Positions 15,371 to 61,671 are shown, numbered from the stretch's first letter. The stretch is DNA of 64,000 nt from Candidatus Bathyarchaeota archaeon (GCA_963807605.1 CAWECG010000001.1:512001-576000), one strand, 5' to 3'. Translations and numbers: made by a program. The notes: generated by a model not told the origin, from the letters alone.

Positions 15371-17920
15371 TCAAAGTCCTTCTCGCTTGTAGAAGAGTCG
15401 CTTGGTTTGCTCCGCGCCCAGAACGTATAGTCCAACAATAATCGCAGTGAAGAGAAGGAAAGTAAGCGAGATAGGAACAAATCCAAACAACGTTCCTAGG
15501 GCCGTAAAGGGTAGAAGCACAGTTGCAATTACCACGCATAATGTCGCAAACAGAAGATATTTGCTAGGCTTACTTCTGAAGAACGATTGTTGAGTGCGAA
15601 TTACTAACACAATCAGAGTGGCAGAGGCCACTGATTCAATGAACCAACCTGTTCTGAACTGATCCGTTGTTGCATGCAAAATGAAGAGAAGTACACCGAA
15701 TGTTAGGTAGTCGAAGACCGAACTAAGGAGACCGAAAGTCATCATGAAGTCCCGGATGAATTTTACGTTCCAGCGTCTGGGTTTCTGTACCATGCCACTG
15801 TCAACGCTATCTGTGGGTATGGTCATTTCAGGGAAGTCTGTCATGAGATTTGTAAGCAGAACTTGCGTGGGCAGCAAGGGTAGGAAGGATAAGAAGAGTG
15901 AAGCTCCGGCCATGCTGAACATGTTTCCGAAATTGGCACTCGCAGCCATGAACACGTACTTGAGAGTGTTAGCGAAAGTCTTTCGACCATCTTGCACACC
16001 CTGTACTAGAACACCCAAGTCTTTCTCAAGTAATACGATGTCAGCAGCCTCCTTAGCTACATCTACTGCAGTGTTCACCGAGATTCCGACGTCTGCAGTA
16101 TGGAGTGCTGAGGCGTCATTGATTCCATCTCCGATGAAGCCTACAACATATCCTGCTTTCTTGAACGCTAAGATAATTCGCTCTTTATGGTTGGGATCGA
16201 CTTCGGCGAACACGTCAGTATCTTTGACTCGTTGAAGGAGCGCTTCGTCACTCATAAGATGGATTTCAGGGCCTGTTAGAACACGTGAACTGGTTAGTCC
16301 TACCTGTGTGCTCAGAGATGCCGCGACGAATCTGTTGTCTCCCGTTATGATCTTTAACGCAATTCCAAGGTTCTGTAGGTTTTGTAGAACTGTCTTAATC
16401 ATCGGCTTAGGCGGATCAAACAATAGCAAGAAACCCAAGAAAATCATCTGAGTTTCTTGATCCTTGTCGATGCGGTCAGCAGGAACGTTCTTGTATGCCA
16501 CGCCAAGCAGCCGGAAACCTTGACCGCTTAAGTCTTCGAAGCGTTGCTGGATTTTCTCACGAACATCTGCAATTTGAACGACCCCATTCGGGGTCTCTGC
16601 TTGGGCGCAGGCGTCGAGTACGTTTGGTACCGCGCCCTTTGTCGTCATGATATGCACGTTATCCTTTGACACTAGGATACTGAGCCTCTTCCGCACAAAA
16701 TCGTATGGGACTTCATCAATTTTCTTGTAAGAAGTGAGGTCGAAGGTACTCTTTGCTCGAATTGCTTCGTCTATGGGGTTTGCAAAGCCGCTCTCAAAAT
16801 TGGCGTTCAGACATGCGTATAGGAGAACCTTTTCGCTAGTGTTGCCTTCGATATCAATGGCGGATTGGACCTGTACTTGTCCTTCGGTTAGGGTTCCCGT
16901 CTTGTCCGAACAGAGAAGGTTCATGCTGCCAAAGTTTTCAATTGAGACAAGTCGTTTCACGATAACTTTCTGCTTTGCCATTTCCTTCGCGCCGTGCGCG
17001 AGATTTACGGTTACTATGGCGGGTAGTAGTTGTGGTGTTAAACCAACTGCGAGTGCCACTGAGAAGAGAAAGGATGCAAGGATTGGTCGTCCCAAGTAGG
17101 CGTTTACAGCGAAGATCATGATTGCCATGATTAGAGTGATTTCCATAAGGAGGTAGCCGAATTGCCTGACGCCACGCTCGAATCCAGTCTCTGGCGGTTT
17201 AAGCGCAAGACTTTCAGAGATTTTTCCGAATTCAGTTTTCTTCCCGGTTGTTACGACAAGAGCTTTGCCAGTACCGCTGACAACATGAGTTCCCATGAAC
17301 AGAGTGTTTGAGCGAGCGCTCAAAGGTGCGTCAGGCGTAAGGATCCCGACGGATTTTTCTTCGGGGTAAGTCTCACCCGTAAGCGTCGCTTCATCAACGA
17401 AAAGATCCCTAACTTCGATGAGTGCGCAGTCACCGGGAACCATGTTCCCTGCGTTCAGTATCACAATATCTCCTGGTACGATTTGCTCTAGAGGAATTTG
17501 ACTTGGTTCTCCGTTGCGTAGCGCAGTCGTATTGATCTGTACGATTGAAAGTAACTTCTTCACGGCATCGCTTGCGCCGCGCTCCTGCCAGAACCCGAGT
17601 ATACCGCTGACGAATACGATGACCAAGATAATTGCTGCACTTGCTCGATCCTGCAGAAAGATGGAAAGTATAGCTGCAACGAGCAAGATGAGTACGAGAG
17701 GGCTTCTGAATTGATTAAGAAGAAGTGTGATGACGTCAGTTTTCTTCTTTTCCTTTAACAGATTGTATCCATATAACGAGAGCCGTCGTTGAACTTCATC
17801 ATTAGTCAAACCTTCAGGGGTCGTCTGAAGCTGTTCAAATAGCTCTGCGCTGGGAATGCTCCAGAAAGGTTTCTCATCAGAGCTGATTGTACCCCTCTCC
17901 CAAAATTTGTACCATAACAA
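15371..17920 (-). CDS. mgtA: Magnesium-translocating P-type ATPase (P3B)
   Basis: LTGE, AVGLTPQLLP, CSDKTGTLT, GDGIND, SANFGNMFS, FRTGWFIES. Confidence 0.9.
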   Translation of the reverse strand: MLWYKFWERGTISSDEKPFWSIPSAELFEQLQTTPEGLTNDEVQRRLSLYGYNLLKEKKKTDVITLLLNQFRSPLVLILLVAAILSIFLQDRASAAIILVIVFVSGILGFWQERGASDAVKKLLSIVQINTTALRNGEPSQIPLEQIVPGDIVILNAGNMVPGDCALIEVRDLFVDEATLTGETYPEEKSVGILTPDAPLSARSNTLFMGTHVVSGTGKALVVTTGKKTEFGKISESLALKPPETGFERGVRQFGYLLMEITLIMAIMIFAVNAYLGRPILASFLFSVALAVGLTPQLLPAIVTVNLAHGAKEMAKQKVIVKRLVSIENFGSMNLLCSDKTGTLTEGQVQVQSAIDIEGNTSEKVLLYACLNANFESGFANPIDEAIRAKSTFDLTSYKKIDEVPYDFVRKRLSILVSKDNVHIMTTKGAVPNVLDACAQAETPNGVVQIADVREKIQQRFEDLSGQGFRLLGVAYKNVPADRIDKDQETQMIFLGFLLLFDPPKPMIKTVLQNLQNLGIALKIITGDNRFVAASLSTQVGLTSSRVLTGPEIHLMSDEALLQRVKDTDVFAEVDPNHKERIILAFKKAGYVVGFIGDGINDASALHTADVGISVNTAVDVAKEAADIVLLEKDLGVLVQGVQDGRKTFANTLKYVFMAASANFGNMFSMAGASLFLSFLPLLPTQVLLTNLMTDFPEMTIPTDSVDSGMVQKPRRWNVKFIRDFMMTFGLLSSVFDYLTFGVLLFILHATTDQFRTGWFIESVASATLIVLVIRTQQSFFRSKPSKYLLFATLCVVIATVLLPFTALGTLFGFVPISLTFLLFTAIIVGLYVLGAEQTKRLFYKREGL

Positions 17921-18171
17921 TACATCGGCTGGCTATAAGTACACAACGCGGAAGCACTGGAAGGGGCACTTCCATGCAGCCTCTCATGAGATCAGCGCGC
18001 GCTTAGATAAACACCTTGGGCCTGTACATTGTCCCGCACGAGGATTTTGGTGACTATTGATGCTTTCTTCTGGCATGCTTAACTTGGTCATGCTTCAAAG
18101 ATGGGGCAGGGGATTCTGACCCCAATTTACCCGTAGACTCAGCCTTGGGGACACGGATAAGAGGGTCCGTG

Positions 18172-18558
18172 TTAGCCGACTATCTGAGTTATTTCCTTGA
18201 TAATCTCGTTTTCAACGTGGCGGGTCCACAGCATTTCAGGAACATCGATTCCAAGGAAGAGAACGGACAGTAACAATGTTTCGACGGCTGCGACTGCAAG
18301 ATTTTGTATCAATTTTCCGATTCCAACATGCACTGTGAAATCGTTCGGTTGCCCTGAAAGGGTTATTGTGAACGCCCGATCGGCGGTGATAATGTCTCGC
18401 AGTATCCCAGCCTTTTGAGCCTGAATCACTTGTCCTAACGGAGCCGTGGTGGACTGGACCTTGTATCCTTCAACCTGTAGTTGTTTAACTATTTGTTGCG
18501 ATAGTTGGGTCAGATCCTTATTCTTTCCTTGAAAACGCAATACTTTCTCTGAAACCAT
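18172..18558 (-). CDS. Conserved hypothetical protein
   Basis: 128-aa ORF with natural composition, ATG start and upstream AT-rich promoter-like sequence. Confidence 0.6.
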   Translation of the reverse strand: MVSEKVLRFQGKNKDLTQLSQQIVKQLQVEGYKVQSTTAPLGQVIQAQKAGILRDIITADRAFTITLSGQPNDFTVHVGIGKLIQNLAVAAVETLLLSVLFLGIDVPEMLWTRHVENEIIKEITQIVG

Positions 18559-18648
18559 TTAAAATTCACCACAAATATAACTACGATACCGTCTAATTAA
18601 CGTTTGACGTGGCGAGCCTGAAGGTCAATTCCATCGTACCCTTGGGAT

Positions 18649-18837
18649 TCAAGTTTGGGTCTTCTTCTTGCCTTTTGGTACATAGTCGAAGAAACGTTCT
18701 GTGACACCATCCCCGGTCCATTCTGCACGCAATCTTGTACGGCGTTCCGCTTTACGCATCTCTTACAGTGGCCTGCGGTTGAGATCGCGTGCGCTCCCCC
18801 CGTTCAGCTCAGCTTCAACTTCGAATCCTTCCGCTGT
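18649..18837 (-). pseudogene. 3' fragment of a small conserved hypothetical protein (..GFEVEAEL.G.SARDLNR..RLRAEW..ERFFDYVPK), with an internal stop
   Basis: Coding-like frame starts immediately after the GCGCGCGC at 18839-18846; one in-frame TAA. Confidence 0.5.
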
Positions 18838-18904
18838 AGCGCGCGCTTCGTTCCAGTTCTTCTTTATCGTTGCTTTTCTTTTCCGTCATGAGTTGAATTT
18901 TGGC

Positions 18905-19189
18905 CTATAGACTTTTGAATGCGCCCTTCAACTCCGTGATAGGCGACTTCAGGTTGAGCGCGTCCTTGATGCTTTCTATCGAAGTGGTTGGAACTCTTCC
19001 CTTTGCATGACGCAGTACAATCATCTTGCCTAGAACCTCTTTTGCCGCCTCTTTCCGGAACTCAACTATAATGTTGGTCACCTTCATTTCGGAAGGGTCG
19101 AATTCCAAGTCCTTAACTTTTCCAAGATTAACCATGTCTTTGCTGTAAACCACGATGTTCTTGATGTTGCTAGCAAACAAACACGACAC
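18905..19189 (-). CDS. PRC-barrel domain protein
   Basis: VYSKD..LGKVKDLEFD..VTNIIV..IESIKD pattern. Confidence 0.75.
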   Translation of the reverse strand: MSCLFASNIKNIVVYSKDMVNLGKVKDLEFDPSEMKVTNIIVEFRKEAAKEVLGKMIVLRHAKGRVPTTSIESIKDALNLKSPITELKGAFKSL

Positions 19190-19284
19190 CTAAGAATCGT
19201 ATTGATATCACAGACCTAAAAGAGTATGCTGAATCTTAGTCTTGCTACGTGGCTTACGCACGCGCTATATCGATGTTCGCGCGC

Positions 19285-20389
19285 AGGGTTGTCCCGATAT
19301 TCTTTGAGTTGACACGGAAAGATCCATAAGGGTTGAGCCCCGCACCCTTCTACTTGGAGGAGATTCCAGATAGAAGGGTACGAGACTCTGGAGTCACTGC
19401 TGAGTAATCTGGATTTATCATTTGTTGAACGTCTAGTTGTTAGTTGCTATCATCAAGAAGGTCCAGGTAAACCTCCACGTAACCCTCTAGGACTCTTCAA
19501 GGCACACCTTGCCAGACGCTACCTCAGAATAAACAGTCTGCGTGAGCTTGAACGTCGCTTATGGATCGATGAGCGGCTACGTGACATATGCGACATAAGA
19601 TATGAGGAGCCAGCCTACGGTAGGACGGTACTCTCAAGATTCAACCAGCGACTAGGAACAAGAAGACTAAGACGCATAGTAAACAAACAGGTCAAGAAAT
19701 TACTGAAGAAGCGCTATGTAACACCAAGAATAGTTGCTATGGACGCCACCTTCATCAAAGCCTACAGCAGACGAAACATAAACAATAGAACAGGCTTCAG
19801 TGACCCTCAAGCACGTGTAGGAAGAGCCTACCGCACATACGGGTTAGGCTACAAACTACACCTAACAGTCGATACAGACACAGCCACACCCCTAACATTC
19901 CTAGTGACACCAGCAAACACTAACGAGAAGAAACCGAGCATACCACTCCTCAAAATGACAGTTAAAACCACAGCAACCAGAATCCGACAGCTAACCGCTG
20001 ACAGTCAATACTCCAGCAACAGACTCAGAGAGACCGCTAAAAAACACAGAATCAAGACCGCGATACCCTACCCAGCCAACCAGAAACCTGAAAGACAAAA
20101 CATCCTCAGAGTAACCAGCGACTTCAAAACACACGGCCCAGAAAACCTCAAACACATCTACAATAAACGCTCCATCATCGAGTTGGTCTTCGCATCACTC
20201 AAAGAACACCTCAACCTCAACAACCACAAGACACGAGGACTAGAAAACATCACCATCCACATCAGCTACTGCATACTATGCCTCCTCTACACCATAGAAG
20301 CCTCACACAACACCAAACAACCCACCAAAACCAGAAGCATAACCTACTGGACAAACCTAACATGAAAACGCTAATAACGGGACAACCCC
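19285..20389 (+). mobile_element. Insertion sequence (IS5/IS1182-like DDE), ~1105 bp, 16-bp TIRs, inserted in a (GC)n site
   Basis: Left GGGTTGTCCCGATATT (19286-19301); right AATAACGGGACAACCC (20373-20388); flanked on both sides by GCGCGC. Confidence 0.9.
19370..20365 (+). CDS. DDE transposase (~331 aa; DUF772-like N-terminus + DDE_Tnp_1)
   Basis: Frame open from 19337; SLRELERRL..LSRF N-terminal domain, DAT, GYKLH, ADSQY, YxxRxxIExxF; possible ATA start at 19370 after GGAGG. Confidence 0.85.
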   Translation: MEGYETLESLLSNLDLSFVERLVVSCYHQEGPGKPPRNPLGLFKAHLARRYLRINSLRELERRLWIDERLRDICDIRYEEPAYGRTVLSRFNQRLGTRRLRRIVNKQVKKLLKKRYVTPRIVAMDATFIKAYSRRNINNRTGFSDPQARVGRAYRTYGLGYKLHLTVDTDTATPLTFLVTPANTNEKKPSIPLLKMTVKTTATRIRQLTADSQYSSNRLRETAKKHRIKTAIPYPANQKPERQNILRVTSDFKTHGPENLKHIYNKRSIIELVFASLKEHLNLNNHKTRGLENITIHISYCILCLLYTIEASHNTKQPTKTRSITYWTNLT

Positions 20390-20466
20390 GCGCGCTATTT
20401 GAAGCCGTTCAGATGAAAACACTGCTTTAATAGACGTGACGAATGAAATAATAGAGTGGAAATAAA

Positions 20467-20781
20467 ATGCCGATAGATCCAGACTTCATGAAGAAGTCCA
20501 AGAAGCATGGCCAGCACAATGACCATGACGTTTGGGGCGAAGTGAAGCCGCCTGAAAAACTGGGAATTCACGGTACCAACGTAGCTGTAGACCATGAGGT
20601 GTGTACTGGCGATGCTATCTGCGTTGATGTCTGTCCAGTAAACGTATTCGAAATGATCGACAGCCCCGGACATCCAACCTCAGCCAGCAAATCAGATCCC
20701 GTCAGGGAGCCAGACTGCATCTTCTGCATGGCCTGTGAAACAGCATGTCCAACGAAAGCCATCAAAATAACTCCAAAATAG
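20467..20781 (+). CDS. Dicluster ferredoxin with N-terminal extension (zinc-containing ferredoxin-like)
   Basis: CTGDAICVDVCP and CIFCMACETACP; KLGIHGT.V motif with N-terminal histidines. Confidence 0.85.
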   Translation: MPIDPDFMKKSKKHGQHNDHDVWGEVKPPEKLGIHGTNVAVDHEVCTGDAICVDVCPVNVFEMIDSPGHPTSASKSDPVREPDCIFCMACETACPTKAIKITPK

Positions 20782-21030
20782 AAAACCAAAATATCAACTG
20801 CAATCTCCTCCAAGCGTCTACCTGAAATTTCAATGATAACTTCTGAAATCCCGAATAAGTTAGAAATAGGGGAAGGCCGCGCGCTCGATATACCTAAGAC
20901 TTGTTGCTGTTCACCAATGAAGAAGGTCGATTAAGGGCATAACTCTAGCCTGTTCACGCGTACCATGTACGTCTTATCACTTCACTTTTTTTTGACTCGT
21001 CCTATGATGAAAAATATGTGGGATATCCTG

Positions 21031-21374
21031 ATGATAAAGACAAAAAGGGTCTATGAAAGGCCATCAAGGGAAGATGGAACTAGAATTTTAGTCGATAGGT
21101 TATGGCCTAGAGGAATTAGTAAAGATGCTGCAAAAGTTGATGAGTGGATGAGGGAGATCGGGCCGTCCGACAAATTAAGAAAATGGTTCGGGCATGATCC
21201 CAAAAAATGGGACGGGTTTAGAAGAAGATACGTGGAAGAGTTGAAGCAGAAGAGCGACTTGACGAACAGATTAAGCTTGATATCGAAGAAAGGAACATTG
21301 ACCTAGTCTATTCAGCCAAGGATGAGCTTTTCAACCAAGCAGTAGCATTGAAACAGTTCTTAGAAGAAGCCTAA
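21031..21374 (+). CDS. DUF488/YeaO-family protein, -1 indel at ~21303
   Basis: KRVYE..DG.RILVDRLWPRG..LRKWFGH; the C-terminus LVYSAKDE..NQAVALK continues in another frame. Confidence 0.8.
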
Positions 21375-21463
21375 CTGTTCCAGCCTTGGTTGAGAGTTAG
21401 TTTGAGAATAGGAGCGCGCGCACAGGGTATTTGCAAACACAAAAGAGATTCACACTTGGGTGT

Positions 21464-21586
21464 TGGTGCTCCGGGCGGGATTTGAACCCGCGATCAGCGA
21501 CTCTGAGGAGGCTTTCCCCGCTCTAAGGCACGAAAGGCCGCTATGCTGTCGGCCCTGCCTTGCTAACCGGGCTACACCACCGGAGC
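21464..21586 (-). tRNA. tRNA-Glu(TTC) with two introns (D-loop, ~16-17 nt; canonical 37/38, 28 nt), encoded CCA
   Basis: Acceptor GCTCCGG/CCGGAGC, anticodon stem GCGGC/GTCGC with CT-TTC-G, T arm GCGGG-TTCAAAT-CCCGC. Confidence 0.9.
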
Positions 21587-21715
21587 ACCTTAGGAAAGCA
21601 AGCTCTTCAACCTTTAATCTCTTTCGAACTTTCCCGTGGAATAAGAAACTCAGCTTTCTATCTCTTGGAATTATAAGGAACAAAACGCCGATATCTTACA
21701 GCAACAAGGATTTCA

Positions 21716-21988
21716 CTATCTGATGTGGAAGTCTTGAAATTCCCCTTTCCACGACTCCCACTCAATTTCAGCATCCTCAACTTCAGCACCGGGAGGACCC
21801 CTCCTGCAAAACTCCAACATCCCGTCAACCTTTTCCTTATCTCCCTCGAAAACGGCTTCCACCCGCCCGTCTGGCAAGTTTCTAACCCAGCCCGAAACCC
21901 CTAGCAGTGAAGCACCCTTCCTCGTCTCGTGTCTGAAGAAGACACCTTGAACCAACCCACTGACGTAAACGTGCGCCCTAACCTTCAA
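21716..21988 (-). CDS. acyP: Acylphosphatase
   Basis: VSGLVQGVFFR, GWVRNLPDGRVE, GPPGAEV. Confidence 0.95.
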   Translation of the reverse strand: MKVRAHVYVSGLVQGVFFRHETRKGASLLGVSGWVRNLPDGRVEAVFEGDKEKVDGMLEFCRRGPPGAEVEDAEIEWESWKGEFQDFHIR

Positions 21989-60026: not shown

Positions 60027-60181
60027 CGCGCGCGCTTTCCTGTGTAGTTTTCGATTGGGTACGTTTTCCTGTCGGTGCTATTGGCTTAGGTGTTTAGGCG
60101 CTAATTGCTTAAGCCCTTTCGAGTTGTGCGCCCTCAGCCGTGCTACTTGCGCTTGCTGAGTTAAACAACCAAACCTCTATA

Positions 60182-60676
60182 CTATTTTTTTTCATTCAAT
60201 AGGATTTCGACAGTCCACTTTGCAGTTTTCCCCACAACATTTTGGCACTTGTCTCCCTTTGCCTTGTTGAATTCTTCATGTTCCTTGGGGTCCCAGAGGT
60301 TGAAAGACCTTCCAATAATTTTCGTCTGGACATCTTTGCAGATGGCGCTTCCAAACTCTTCTATGAACCGGTCATGGAGCTTCTTGCCCAGTACCATGCC
60401 CTTCTCTCTTTCTCCAAGATTCGAGAAATCTGCCCTGCCATACCTTTGGCTTATCGCTGCCACTCCGCCTGACAAGGCGCCACATGTGCCATCTCCTGCA
60501 CGGACCAATCCTCCAGCTAGACCGTCCATCGTCTTAAAGATCTCACGGCTTCGACCTCCCAAGACTTCGCTCACAGCTGCAAAGGCACATTGTGAGCAAC
60601 CTCCATGAGCCTTGGTATAGTTGAAACCCAAATCATAAGCACGTTTCATCAAGTCTTCTTTGCTTGATTTCACCAA
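60182..60676 (-). CDS. C_GCAxxG_C_C family redox protein
   Basis: GCSQ, TCGALSGG, F.EEFGS.IC, KC. Confidence 0.85.
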   Translation of the reverse strand: MVKSSKEDLMKRAYDLGFNYTKAHGGCSQCAFAAVSEVLGGRSREIFKTMDGLAGGLVRAGDGTCGALSGGVAAISQRYGRADFSNLGEREKGMVLGKKLHDRFIEEFGSAICKDVQTKIIGRSFNLWDPKEHEEFNKAKGDKCQNVVGKTAKWTVEILLNEKK

Positions 60677-61041
60677 ATATGTCACCAGACCACTTTGCAT
60701 TCGCACTGTTTGGCCAACGGTAGCATTAGCAATCTCTAAAAACATTTTGGATAGTGTGTACGCGTGGATACCTGCGGAATGTGAAGGTCAAGGATTTGAC
60801 TCTTGGGCGCCTGACGCGCACGTCATTTATATGGGTAATCAGTCAGAGGATAGAGCGCGGGCTATCACCGCATCGACGATAGAACAAACCTAAGCCAGAT
60901 AATCGAGTTTCGTCGTCGCTCACGAAAAGAGTTGCACACACAATTTCGTTACACTAGGAAAAAGAACCGCAGGTCTGGGATGCGGATCCAAGACATACGC
61001 GCGCGAAACGTTAAGTAAGCATCAGGAGCACGTTTCTAGAG

Positions 61042-61227
61042 GTGATGAGCTTAGTGATTACTTTGAAATGTCCTATTGGCGAGTGTATCTTTGAGATAGA
61101 TGCTCACACCTTTGAAGAAGCAATTAGGAAGGCTAGAGATCACGCGAAGGCACAACACAAAATGACTGATCTCCCTCCACACATTATAGAAAAAATTGCA
61201 CAAGCGTTTAAGCCCACAATATGGTGA
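61042..61227 (+). CDS. DUF1059 small metal-binding protein (paralog of 57788-57955)
   Basis: LKCP..C.F...A.T.EE.....HA...H.M. Confidence 0.7.
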   Translation: MMSLVITLKCPIGECIFEIDAHTFEEAIRKARDHAKAQHKMTDLPPHIIEKIAQAFKPTIW

Positions 61228-61671
61228 GCTCGCGCACAACTAACACTACGGACGCGCCCCTCGGATTCCACTGAGGGTCAACAAAGACAAATCATGTTTT
61301 TGCCGAGTTGCGATGTCCCAAGAATGACGAATTCACCTAATTATCCAATTGCGTACGGGCGGCTCACTATAATCTGCTTGTTGAACACCTGCGAAATTGT
61401 TTGCCCGCATTACGTGGGTTACAATTGTGGCTACACTCTGTGCAGATTAATCCTGATTGGTCTCGCCAGAGGATATCACGCCGAGACGATGTTCTCCAAA
61501 AGGACCGCACACACAAATCGTAGGAGCCAGCCCGCAGGATATAAGCGGAGTTTAAGCTTCTTTCAACACCAGAGGTCATCTTCAGAAAACTTAATGATAG
61601 CAAGGAAAGATGAGAGAATTTCAAACATGAATATAATCAACCAATCGTTTTGTTATCCCTATTAAGATCGT

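Follow-up and report, generated by a model that had tools for sequence, protein, structure and literature searches.

How does an insertion sequence (IS) come to lie inside one of the short alternating runs of G and C that are scattered through an archaeal genome, and does such an element exploit these runs or create them? The question arises from a 64,000-nucleotide stretch of a Candidatus Bathyarchaeota archaeon genome (C1:512001-576000; hereafter the window), in which an IS, here termed IS-A, is bracketed by G/C letters on both sides. The initial annotation offered two roles for the element: it either uses a GC octamer as a safe harbour, or it is the enzyme whose cycles of insertion, adjacent deletion and excision generate the runs and the truncated genes around them. 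The octamer GCGCGCGC is indeed dispersed across the window, as had been stated there, with 28 copies observed against 0.3 expected from shuffles and 0/100 shuffles reaching 28.

The host genome (G000; 2.65 Mb, 47% GC, 5 contigs) contains 298 octamer positions, compared with ~25 expected from base composition. Alternating G/C runs of at least 6 nt number 640 and cover ~0.2% of the genome, against 14 full IS copies (IS-A together with IS-B, a second element described below); runs of 12 nt occur only 4 times. The commonest long run takes the form (t)A-GCGCGCGC-T(a), with A before the exact 8-mer in 86% of cases and T after it in 82%. Around the exact 8-mer and its A/T neighbours nothing further is conserved, and the octamer is a bare dispersed motif rather than part of a larger repeat. 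When ORFs are mapped crudely by a greedy method (69-86% of each contig covered), 84% of the 8-9-nt runs lie outside ORFs and 16% inside, compared with 19% of the genome lying outside.

Within the window the insertion reads ...gatgtt-CGCGCGC-AGGGTTGTCCCGATATT...AATAACGGGACAACCCC-GCGCGC-tattt (Table 1), and TA directly follows the right GC run, as it does in the dispersed motif. The earlier description of an IS with 16-bp inverted ends inside a GC run is borne out, the ends measuring 17 nt with 15/17 positions matching. A repeat finder extends the inverted arms to 23 nt at 91%, because the flanking GCGCGC is its own reverse complement. BLAST recovered 7 copies of IS-A in the genome, 4 of them at 99.8-100% identity and 3 at ~92%. 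All seven have the flanks (A/C)GCGCGC-IS-GCGCGC(T), and the duplicated tetramer is GCGC in 7/7 copies, as it is in most relatives. The genome offers 7120 GCGC tetramers, only 298 of which are octamer-centred, and 7/7 IS-A copies used such a position. Six further insertion sites found in JGI metagenome contigs all read ...GCGCGC immediately before the IS. A solo IS-A end also adjoins AGCGCGC at C3:384691. The claim that the window has a single IS stands within the tests made: in a genome self-comparison, none of the other IS-like repeat families maps into C1:512001-576000, and the other long window repeat (60036-61233) has no transposase ORF evident by eye.

Table 1. Features of IS-A and its flanks, in window coordinates.
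Feature	Position	Strand	Remarks
Left flanking GC run CGCGCGC	19278..19284	.	Last 4 nt (19281-19284, GCGC) are the left copy of the target-site duplication
IS-A (insertion sequence)	19285..20389	+	1105 bp; contigs from a closely related strain lack it and exactly 4 further bases
Left terminal inverted repeat AGGGTTGTCCCGATATT	19285..19301	+	Kept in all copies and in metagenome copies
RNA hairpin	19341..19382	+	Contains a GGAGG box of Shine-Dalgarno type and an in-frame ATA; just precedes the conserved coding region
Transposase gene	19388..20365	+	DUF772 and DDE_Tnp_1; conserved from 19388 (325 codons)
Right terminal inverted repeat AATAACGGGACAACCCC	20373..20389	+	Direct reading, inverted-repeat finder and copies
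Right flanking GC run GCGCGC	20390..20395	.	First 4 nt (20390-20393, GCGC) are the right copy of the duplication

The transposase matches DUF772 (E 5e-8) and DDE_Tnp_1 (PF01609; E 1.8e-26, 93.6 bits against a cut-off of 23, residues 130-317), and it contains a Y-x2-R-x3-E-x6-K motif (YNKRSIIELVFASLK). Y258, E265, K272 and D119 are invariant in a 4-sequence alignment; the second D (ADSQY) is present in IS-A and is not invariant in that alignment. The best NCBIfam model is IS1182 (NF033551; E 2.7e-41), at 142 bits below its cut-off of 270 and with the match split into 3 stretches of the 488-position model, the best covering only profile positions 247-350. The best IS5 model, NF033581 (IS5_4), scores 81.4 bits, below its cut-off of 140, and the other IS5 models likewise stay below theirs (62 vs 110, 59.5 vs 140 and 38 vs 275 bits). 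Since no NCBIfam model reaches its cut-off, IS-A is an uncurated member of the IS5/IS1182 group, in an uncurated archaeal clade.

The transposase frame is open from 19337 (342 codons) to 20365, and no in-frame ATG, GTG or TTG stands ahead of 19739 (codon 118). With dN/dS at 0.21 over the first 117 codons, this part of the protein is under purifying selection; the value between subgroups is ~0.23 for the transposase. Upstream of the conserved coding region, the hairpin (inverted repeat I2) folds at -29.8 kcal/mol (z = -2.86) and its sequence is kept in relatives, including a conserved GGAGG followed 9 nt later by the in-frame ATA. The hairpin would likely act as a brake on translation. A short TTG-started frame overlaps the transposase frame in the -1 register (region 19309-19400), and a relative in another genome of the family (G012) is one base shorter at the start region, with an in-frame TTG further upstream. 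Translation might possibly begin at a weak, non-canonical ATA start or involve a +1 frameshift. Four near-identical copies at different loci, presence and absence between ~98%-identical strains, and dN/dS of ~0.23 indicate that IS-A has probably been active recently and that its transposase is functional.

Because GCGC is palindromic, filled sites cannot separate a 4-bp duplication from two G/C letters carried at each IS end, and an empty allele is informative in this respect. A search of sequencing runs returned 20, each with a share of the stretch of at most 0.18, and Logan contigs from 4 metagenome runs were aligned to window positions 17800-21900. The empty allele was found in one contig in each of 2 soil-metagenome runs (X1 and X2, from one study), with flanks ~98% identical to the window. 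Each contig covers 19118-19279 with 4 mismatches and 20389-20859 with 8 mismatches, joining 19279 directly to 20389, so that 1109 nt (1105 + 4) are skipped; 5 letters are ambiguous where the two parts meet. gttCGCGCGCGCtatt is the sequence of the empty site, in the context gatgtt-CGCGCGCGC-tatt. Flanking G/C letters number 7 + 6 = 13 in the filled allele and 9 in the empty one. As the empty site has a 9-nt run and four letters fewer, the element inserted into an existing run and duplicated 4 bp (GCGC). The 4-bp GCGC duplication and the empty site cGCGCGCGCta predicted from the filled allele are thus seen directly, at a single recovered site whose two runs, coming from one study, may not be independent. 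Precise excision could in principle have produced the empty allele, which would then not be ancestral; in either case a run is present where the IS is absent.

Other evidence on duplication length comes from relatives with asymmetric flanks (L101, 4+6; L106, 9+4; L105, 8+5), which fit a 4-bp duplication and not a 6-bp one. The 6-bp duplication that the initial annotation had considered also compatible is ruled out by these flanks together with the empty site. A TA duplication, as in IS630/mariner elements, was likewise rejected: the outer t and a occur at only 6/7 and 5/7 copies of IS-A and simply mirror the host motif's own flanks. No direct repeats were seen outside the GC runs in IS-A copies or relatives. 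The proposed comparison of empty sites in relatives succeeded only through metagenome contigs. Flank DNA searches of a same-genus genome (G001) and 4 family members gave no usable site, since genes there are only ~70% identical and synteny around the IS is lost; in the same-genus genome another gene lies upstream of the ferredoxin gene, and a PRC-barrel gene is absent from that place. Scanning JGI metagenome contigs with a gapped pattern of the empty site in the window gave no match.

The strain with the empty site differs from the window at a second place nearby, where 20860-21453 (594 nt) is replaced by 86 unrelated letters. This stretch, which resembles a GC-run-bounded cassette, holds a DUF488-like ORF at 20965-21306, with GC runs near its two ends (20878-20883 and 21414-21421), and it stops where the 3' end of a tRNA-like gene is reached. 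The tRNA-like gene (21455-21590, minus strand) has an encoded CCA end and an insert of ~70 nt, as seen by eye, and contigs of other organisms skip 53-75 nt within it. ARAGORN and Rfam (gathering threshold) reported nothing in the 17.5-22.5 kb region, the tRNA-like gene included.

A transposase search revealed a second element in the same genome, IS-B (~1.13 kb), whose transposase is 41% identical to that of IS-A. GC runs adjoin 7/7 of its full copies. Among copies that are 99.9% identical, the left flanks vary (AGCGCGC, CGCGCGC, CCAACGC), as do the right flanks (GCGCGCG, GCGCGG, GCGCGTT, ACGCGCG), and the runs therefore belong to the flank and not to the element. One copy (C3:246500) bears the direct repeat ACGC, which points to a duplication of 4 bp derived from the flank. 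Counting against our preferred explanation, one copy has a 1-nt mismatch between its two duplication copies. Truncated 3' fragments of IS-B lie at C1:233615-233886 and C3:48689-49076 of the host genome, where the breaks are joined to GC-rich letters (GCGCACGC and GCGCGGCCCC) that intact IS-B does not have at those places; these break points are compatible with the idea of GC filler at joints. An element of ~470 bp at C3:149305-149790 has IS-B-type ends (CAGCTTCTTGC...GCAAGAGGCT) and the flanks AGCGCGC and GCGCGCT. It has no transposase, and a small reverse-strand ORF is apparent by eye.

The GC flanks are not a general property of mobile-element junctions in this genome, since unrelated repeat families are not GC-flanked as a class. 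As controls we listed 42 copies from 4 such families, using the genome self-comparison and their repeat ends. Three families, 1.33-1.39 kb long, lack inverted ends and comprise 16, 9 and 9 copies (82-96% identical); their starts are TTGACAC, GTGACAT or GTGAAC and their ends ...TGTAA, ...TATAA or ...TTTAAG. These three, at C1:99462-100850, C1:597030-598357 and C1:230846-232196, are related to one another, with copies mostly on C4:480-720 kb, and are probably IS200/IS605-type (TnpB-like) elements. The fourth family is a 1079-bp IS with 8 copies (C1:152073-153151 and 7 others) at 99.5-100% identity, which has TGCTGTGTTGCG ends (TGCTGTGTTGCGCGACTAG) and clear 8-bp duplications at mostly AT-rich sites. 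One of its copies lies inside a short cgcgcgt, and short G/C stretches also occur in a few of the flanks in the other three families.

Three sources supplied relatives of IS-A: a profile search of genome contigs (49 loci, almost all in Bathyarchaeia metagenome-assembled genomes), a sample of genomes across the class, and JGI metagenome contigs. Other Bathyarchaeia genomes and metagenome contigs yielded 48 non-redundant relatives, in which alternating G/C letters adjoin both junctions over at least 4 nt in 43 cases, at least 5 in 40 and at least 6 in 30. The corresponding figures for 805 control windows in the same loci are 4.3%, 1.5% and 0.7%. Collecting all copies, as had been proposed to establish the target, thus gave GC flanks for 7/7 IS-A copies, 7/7 IS-B copies and 43/48 relatives, and the targets are not unrelated sequences. 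Subfamilies of the clade differ in their ends (ATGCGTGTTCCTAAATT, CAGC(C/T)TCTTGC, TAGGGTGTTGC, ATAAGTGTTCATTAATT and TGGCTTGTCCC), and all are bracketed by GC runs. The commonest flank pattern is 6+6, that is, an octamer target plus four letters; 7+7 (L048, L076) and 8+8 (L056, L077) also occur. Two observations count against the best explanation: with a constant 4-bp duplication the 8+8 elements would require 12-nt targets, which are rare, and one relative (L109) lacks a left GC run. The preference persists at protein identities as low as ~30% and in hosts where GC runs are scarce. Because it also holds where the octamer is not enriched, we attribute it to the IS clade and not to the host.

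Two loci contain different clade members back to back, sharing a single GCGCG(C) run (L051, OY970072.1, ~1.117 Mb; L120, Ga0315274_10230774). They suggest that half-runs from an earlier insertion were hit again, as would be expected if each half-run stays attractive. Another full clade member with GC-run flanks (L059, DATLAV010000246.1) lies on a contig binned as a Patescibacteria bacterium, which is either mis-binned or the result of a transfer outside the archaea.

If IS-A were the enzyme behind the mosaic, creating the runs, their variable lengths and the truncated genes through insertion, adjacent deletion and excision, its presence should go with the motif, and a correlation of this kind had been proposed as a check. 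Some observations favour this idea. Excision that rejoins both duplication copies would turn an 8-nt run into one of 12 nt, the broken IS-B copies and the solo IS-A end adjoin GC-rich junctions, and the two genomes of the host's own family with the most copies of AGCGCGCGCT also bear these ISs (the host with 106 and G001 with 119). Within this family, the clade transposase was found in three other genomes as well (G002, 28 copies; G008, 4; G012, 2), and it was not found in G003 (63), G010 (44), G013 (40), G009 (32), G007 (30), G004 (29) or G015 (16). Across a class-wide survey of 201 genomes there is no correlation between IS and motif. One family (f29) has 13-131 motif copies in 5/5 genomes with the clade transposase in 0/5, and the family that holds most of these ISs (f22) has the IS in 27/50 genomes with no motif enrichment over a reversed-pattern control. 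In fragmented metagenome-assembled genomes, where repeats often fail to assemble, the absence of an IS is weak evidence.

Run lengths speak against such an origin as well. Runs of at least 10 nt are frequent in IS-free, motif-rich genomes (67 + 177 hits in G083; 25 + 81 in G100), so that variation in run length needs no IS cycles. In the host, 640 runs stand against 14 IS copies and only 4 runs reach 12 nt, and precise excision merely restores the target. We therefore regard it as extremely unlikely that the IS makes the runs. The causal version of the initial proposal, in which the element creates the GC runs and truncated genes, is refuted by the motif-rich genomes in which the family was not detected (G003, G010, G013, G009, G007, G004, G015 and the five of f29); the runs exist without the IS, which can no longer count as the best candidate enzyme for the mosaic. 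The window's one mobile element cannot be the writer of its GC runs, and the writer must be sought elsewhere. The other version, in which the octamer serves as a landing site or safe harbour, is supported by the GC-run flanks, the 4-bp duplication, the empty site and the location of 84% of 8-9-nt runs outside ORFs.

Taken together, IS-A is very probably an active cut-and-paste DDE element from a clade that targets alternating G/C runs and duplicates GCGC over 4 bp, with the runs themselves being independent of the IS. In the model we propose, the transposase would pick an alternating G/C run as its target and cut it with a 4-bp stagger around GCGC, usually at the centre of a GCGCGCGC octamer. 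Gap repair would then leave the element between two GCGCGC half-runs, giving the 6+6 pattern; the window copy is flanked 7+6 because its target was a 9-nt run. The host motif (t)A-GCGCGCGC-T(a), being mostly intergenic, would provide a large set of low-cost landing sites, and the runs would arise by some other, IS-independent process. The transposase itself may read the sequence. Landing in runs may also lower the cost to the host, as an IS confined to runs that lie mostly outside ORFs would seldom hit a gene. A variant of this model, in which the transposase reads Z-DNA or a B-Z junction, or in which the run is marked by the host machinery that writes or binds runs, and the letters GCGCGCGC are not themselves read, seems unlikely to us. 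If true, it would explain the tendency to insert at the exact centre of 8-, 10- and 12-nt runs (6+6, 7+7 and 8+8), and the GC runs of the hosts would be a sink that keeps the clade out of genes.

It is also conceivable that the GCGCGC hexamers belong to the IS as its extreme tips, travel with it and are uninformative about the target. The hexamer is self-complementary and lengthens the inverted repeat to 23 nt, and almost all members of the clade have it on either side, including those in hosts where runs are few. This possibility nonetheless predicts an empty allele with no run, and a 9-nt run was found there. Flank lengths moreover vary among 99.9%-identical IS-B copies and among relatives (4+6, 6+6, 7+7, 8+5, 9+4), no direct repeat is seen outside the runs, and one IS-B duplication is ACGC, all of which makes it highly improbable that the hexamers belong to the element. 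That the runs were instead written de novo at the junctions by host end-joining, as a GC filler, is very unlikely too, despite the two truncated IS-B copies with GC-rich break letters (GCGCACGC, GCGCGG) that are foreign to the intact IS. Every IS end is complete, the flanking runs are regular and for the most part symmetric, the run is already present in the empty allele, and the alleles differ by exactly 4 bp. Other mobile families in the genome lack junction GC runs as a class, and the pattern holds in hosts that show no motif enrichment. DDE strand transfer, furthermore, leaves no free ends to fill. The IS junctions show ordinary target duplications and not filler. Random insertion followed by survival only of the copies in harmless GC-run spacers would fit the mostly intergenic position of the runs, but we find it hardly credible: ~19% of the genome is non-coding on the crude ORF map, runs of at least 6 nt make up only ~0.2%, and 14/14 local and ~90% of foreign copies lie in runs, always at GCGC. 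The 1079-bp control IS, by comparison, survives at ordinary AT-rich sites. We thus retain the model of run targeting with a 4-bp duplication.

Curated IS models miss this clade, which is conserved throughout a class of uncultured archaea and which, with its unusually sharp, GC-only palindromic target, makes a natural experiment. IS copies mark former GC runs and can help to date them, and the 6+6 signature helps the annotation of these elements. A transposase with an 8-bp preference is also a possible starting point for studies of target recognition in the IS4/IS5 superfamily. A literature search covering GCGCGCGC in archaea, IS targets in Bathyarchaeota and IS1182 targets found no prior description.

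Among known elements, IS-A resembles the IS5 group in size (~1.1-1.2 kb), in its single DDE_Tnp_1 transposase with an N-terminal DUF772 region and a YREK motif, in terminal inverted repeats of ~16 nt, and in the 4-bp duplication of a palindromic tetramer. IS5 of E. coli duplicates 4 bp of a palindrome-like tetramer with the consensus YTAR/CTAG. IS-A differs in that its tetramer, GCGC, is not CTAG-like and flanking G/C letters are preferred too, giving an effective site of 6-8 bp, and in its score against IS5 models (81 bits vs a curated cut-off of 140). IS1182 (NF033551) is the best-scoring curated model and shares the DUF772 and DDE_Tnp_1 architecture; the IS-A protein has 325-342 aa and the element 1.1 kb, compared with a 488-position model, and the score is 142 vs 270 bits. 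An obligatory short palindromic target that is duplicated on insertion is also known from piggyBac (TTAA) and from Tc1/mariner/IS630 elements (TA). These differ from IS-A in having transposases of unrelated superfamilies and AT-only, far more frequent targets.

The closest functional likeness is with ISs that target REP or BIME repeats, namely IS1397, ISKpn1, IS621, ISPa11, ISPpu9/10, ISRm22 and ISNm1106, whose association ratios range from 5/5 to 10/10; members of the IS4 and IS5 families, with the same Pfam transposase domain, are among them (Tobes & Pareja 2006, PMC1525189). In both systems every copy, or nearly every copy, lies inside a short, dispersed, mostly extragenic palindromic repeat that is independent of the IS. 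For the elements described here, the association is 7/7 for IS-A, 7/7 for IS-B and 43/48 for relatives, compared with 4% of controls, and unoccupied runs exist. Judged from these sequences, the IS-A clade appears to be an archaeal counterpart of the REP-targeting ISs in function. Its target is nevertheless distinct, a bare alternating GC run of 8-10 nt instead of a REP stem-loop of ~35 nt, its host is an archaeon, and its preference is clade-wide and persists where the host shows no enrichment of the motif.
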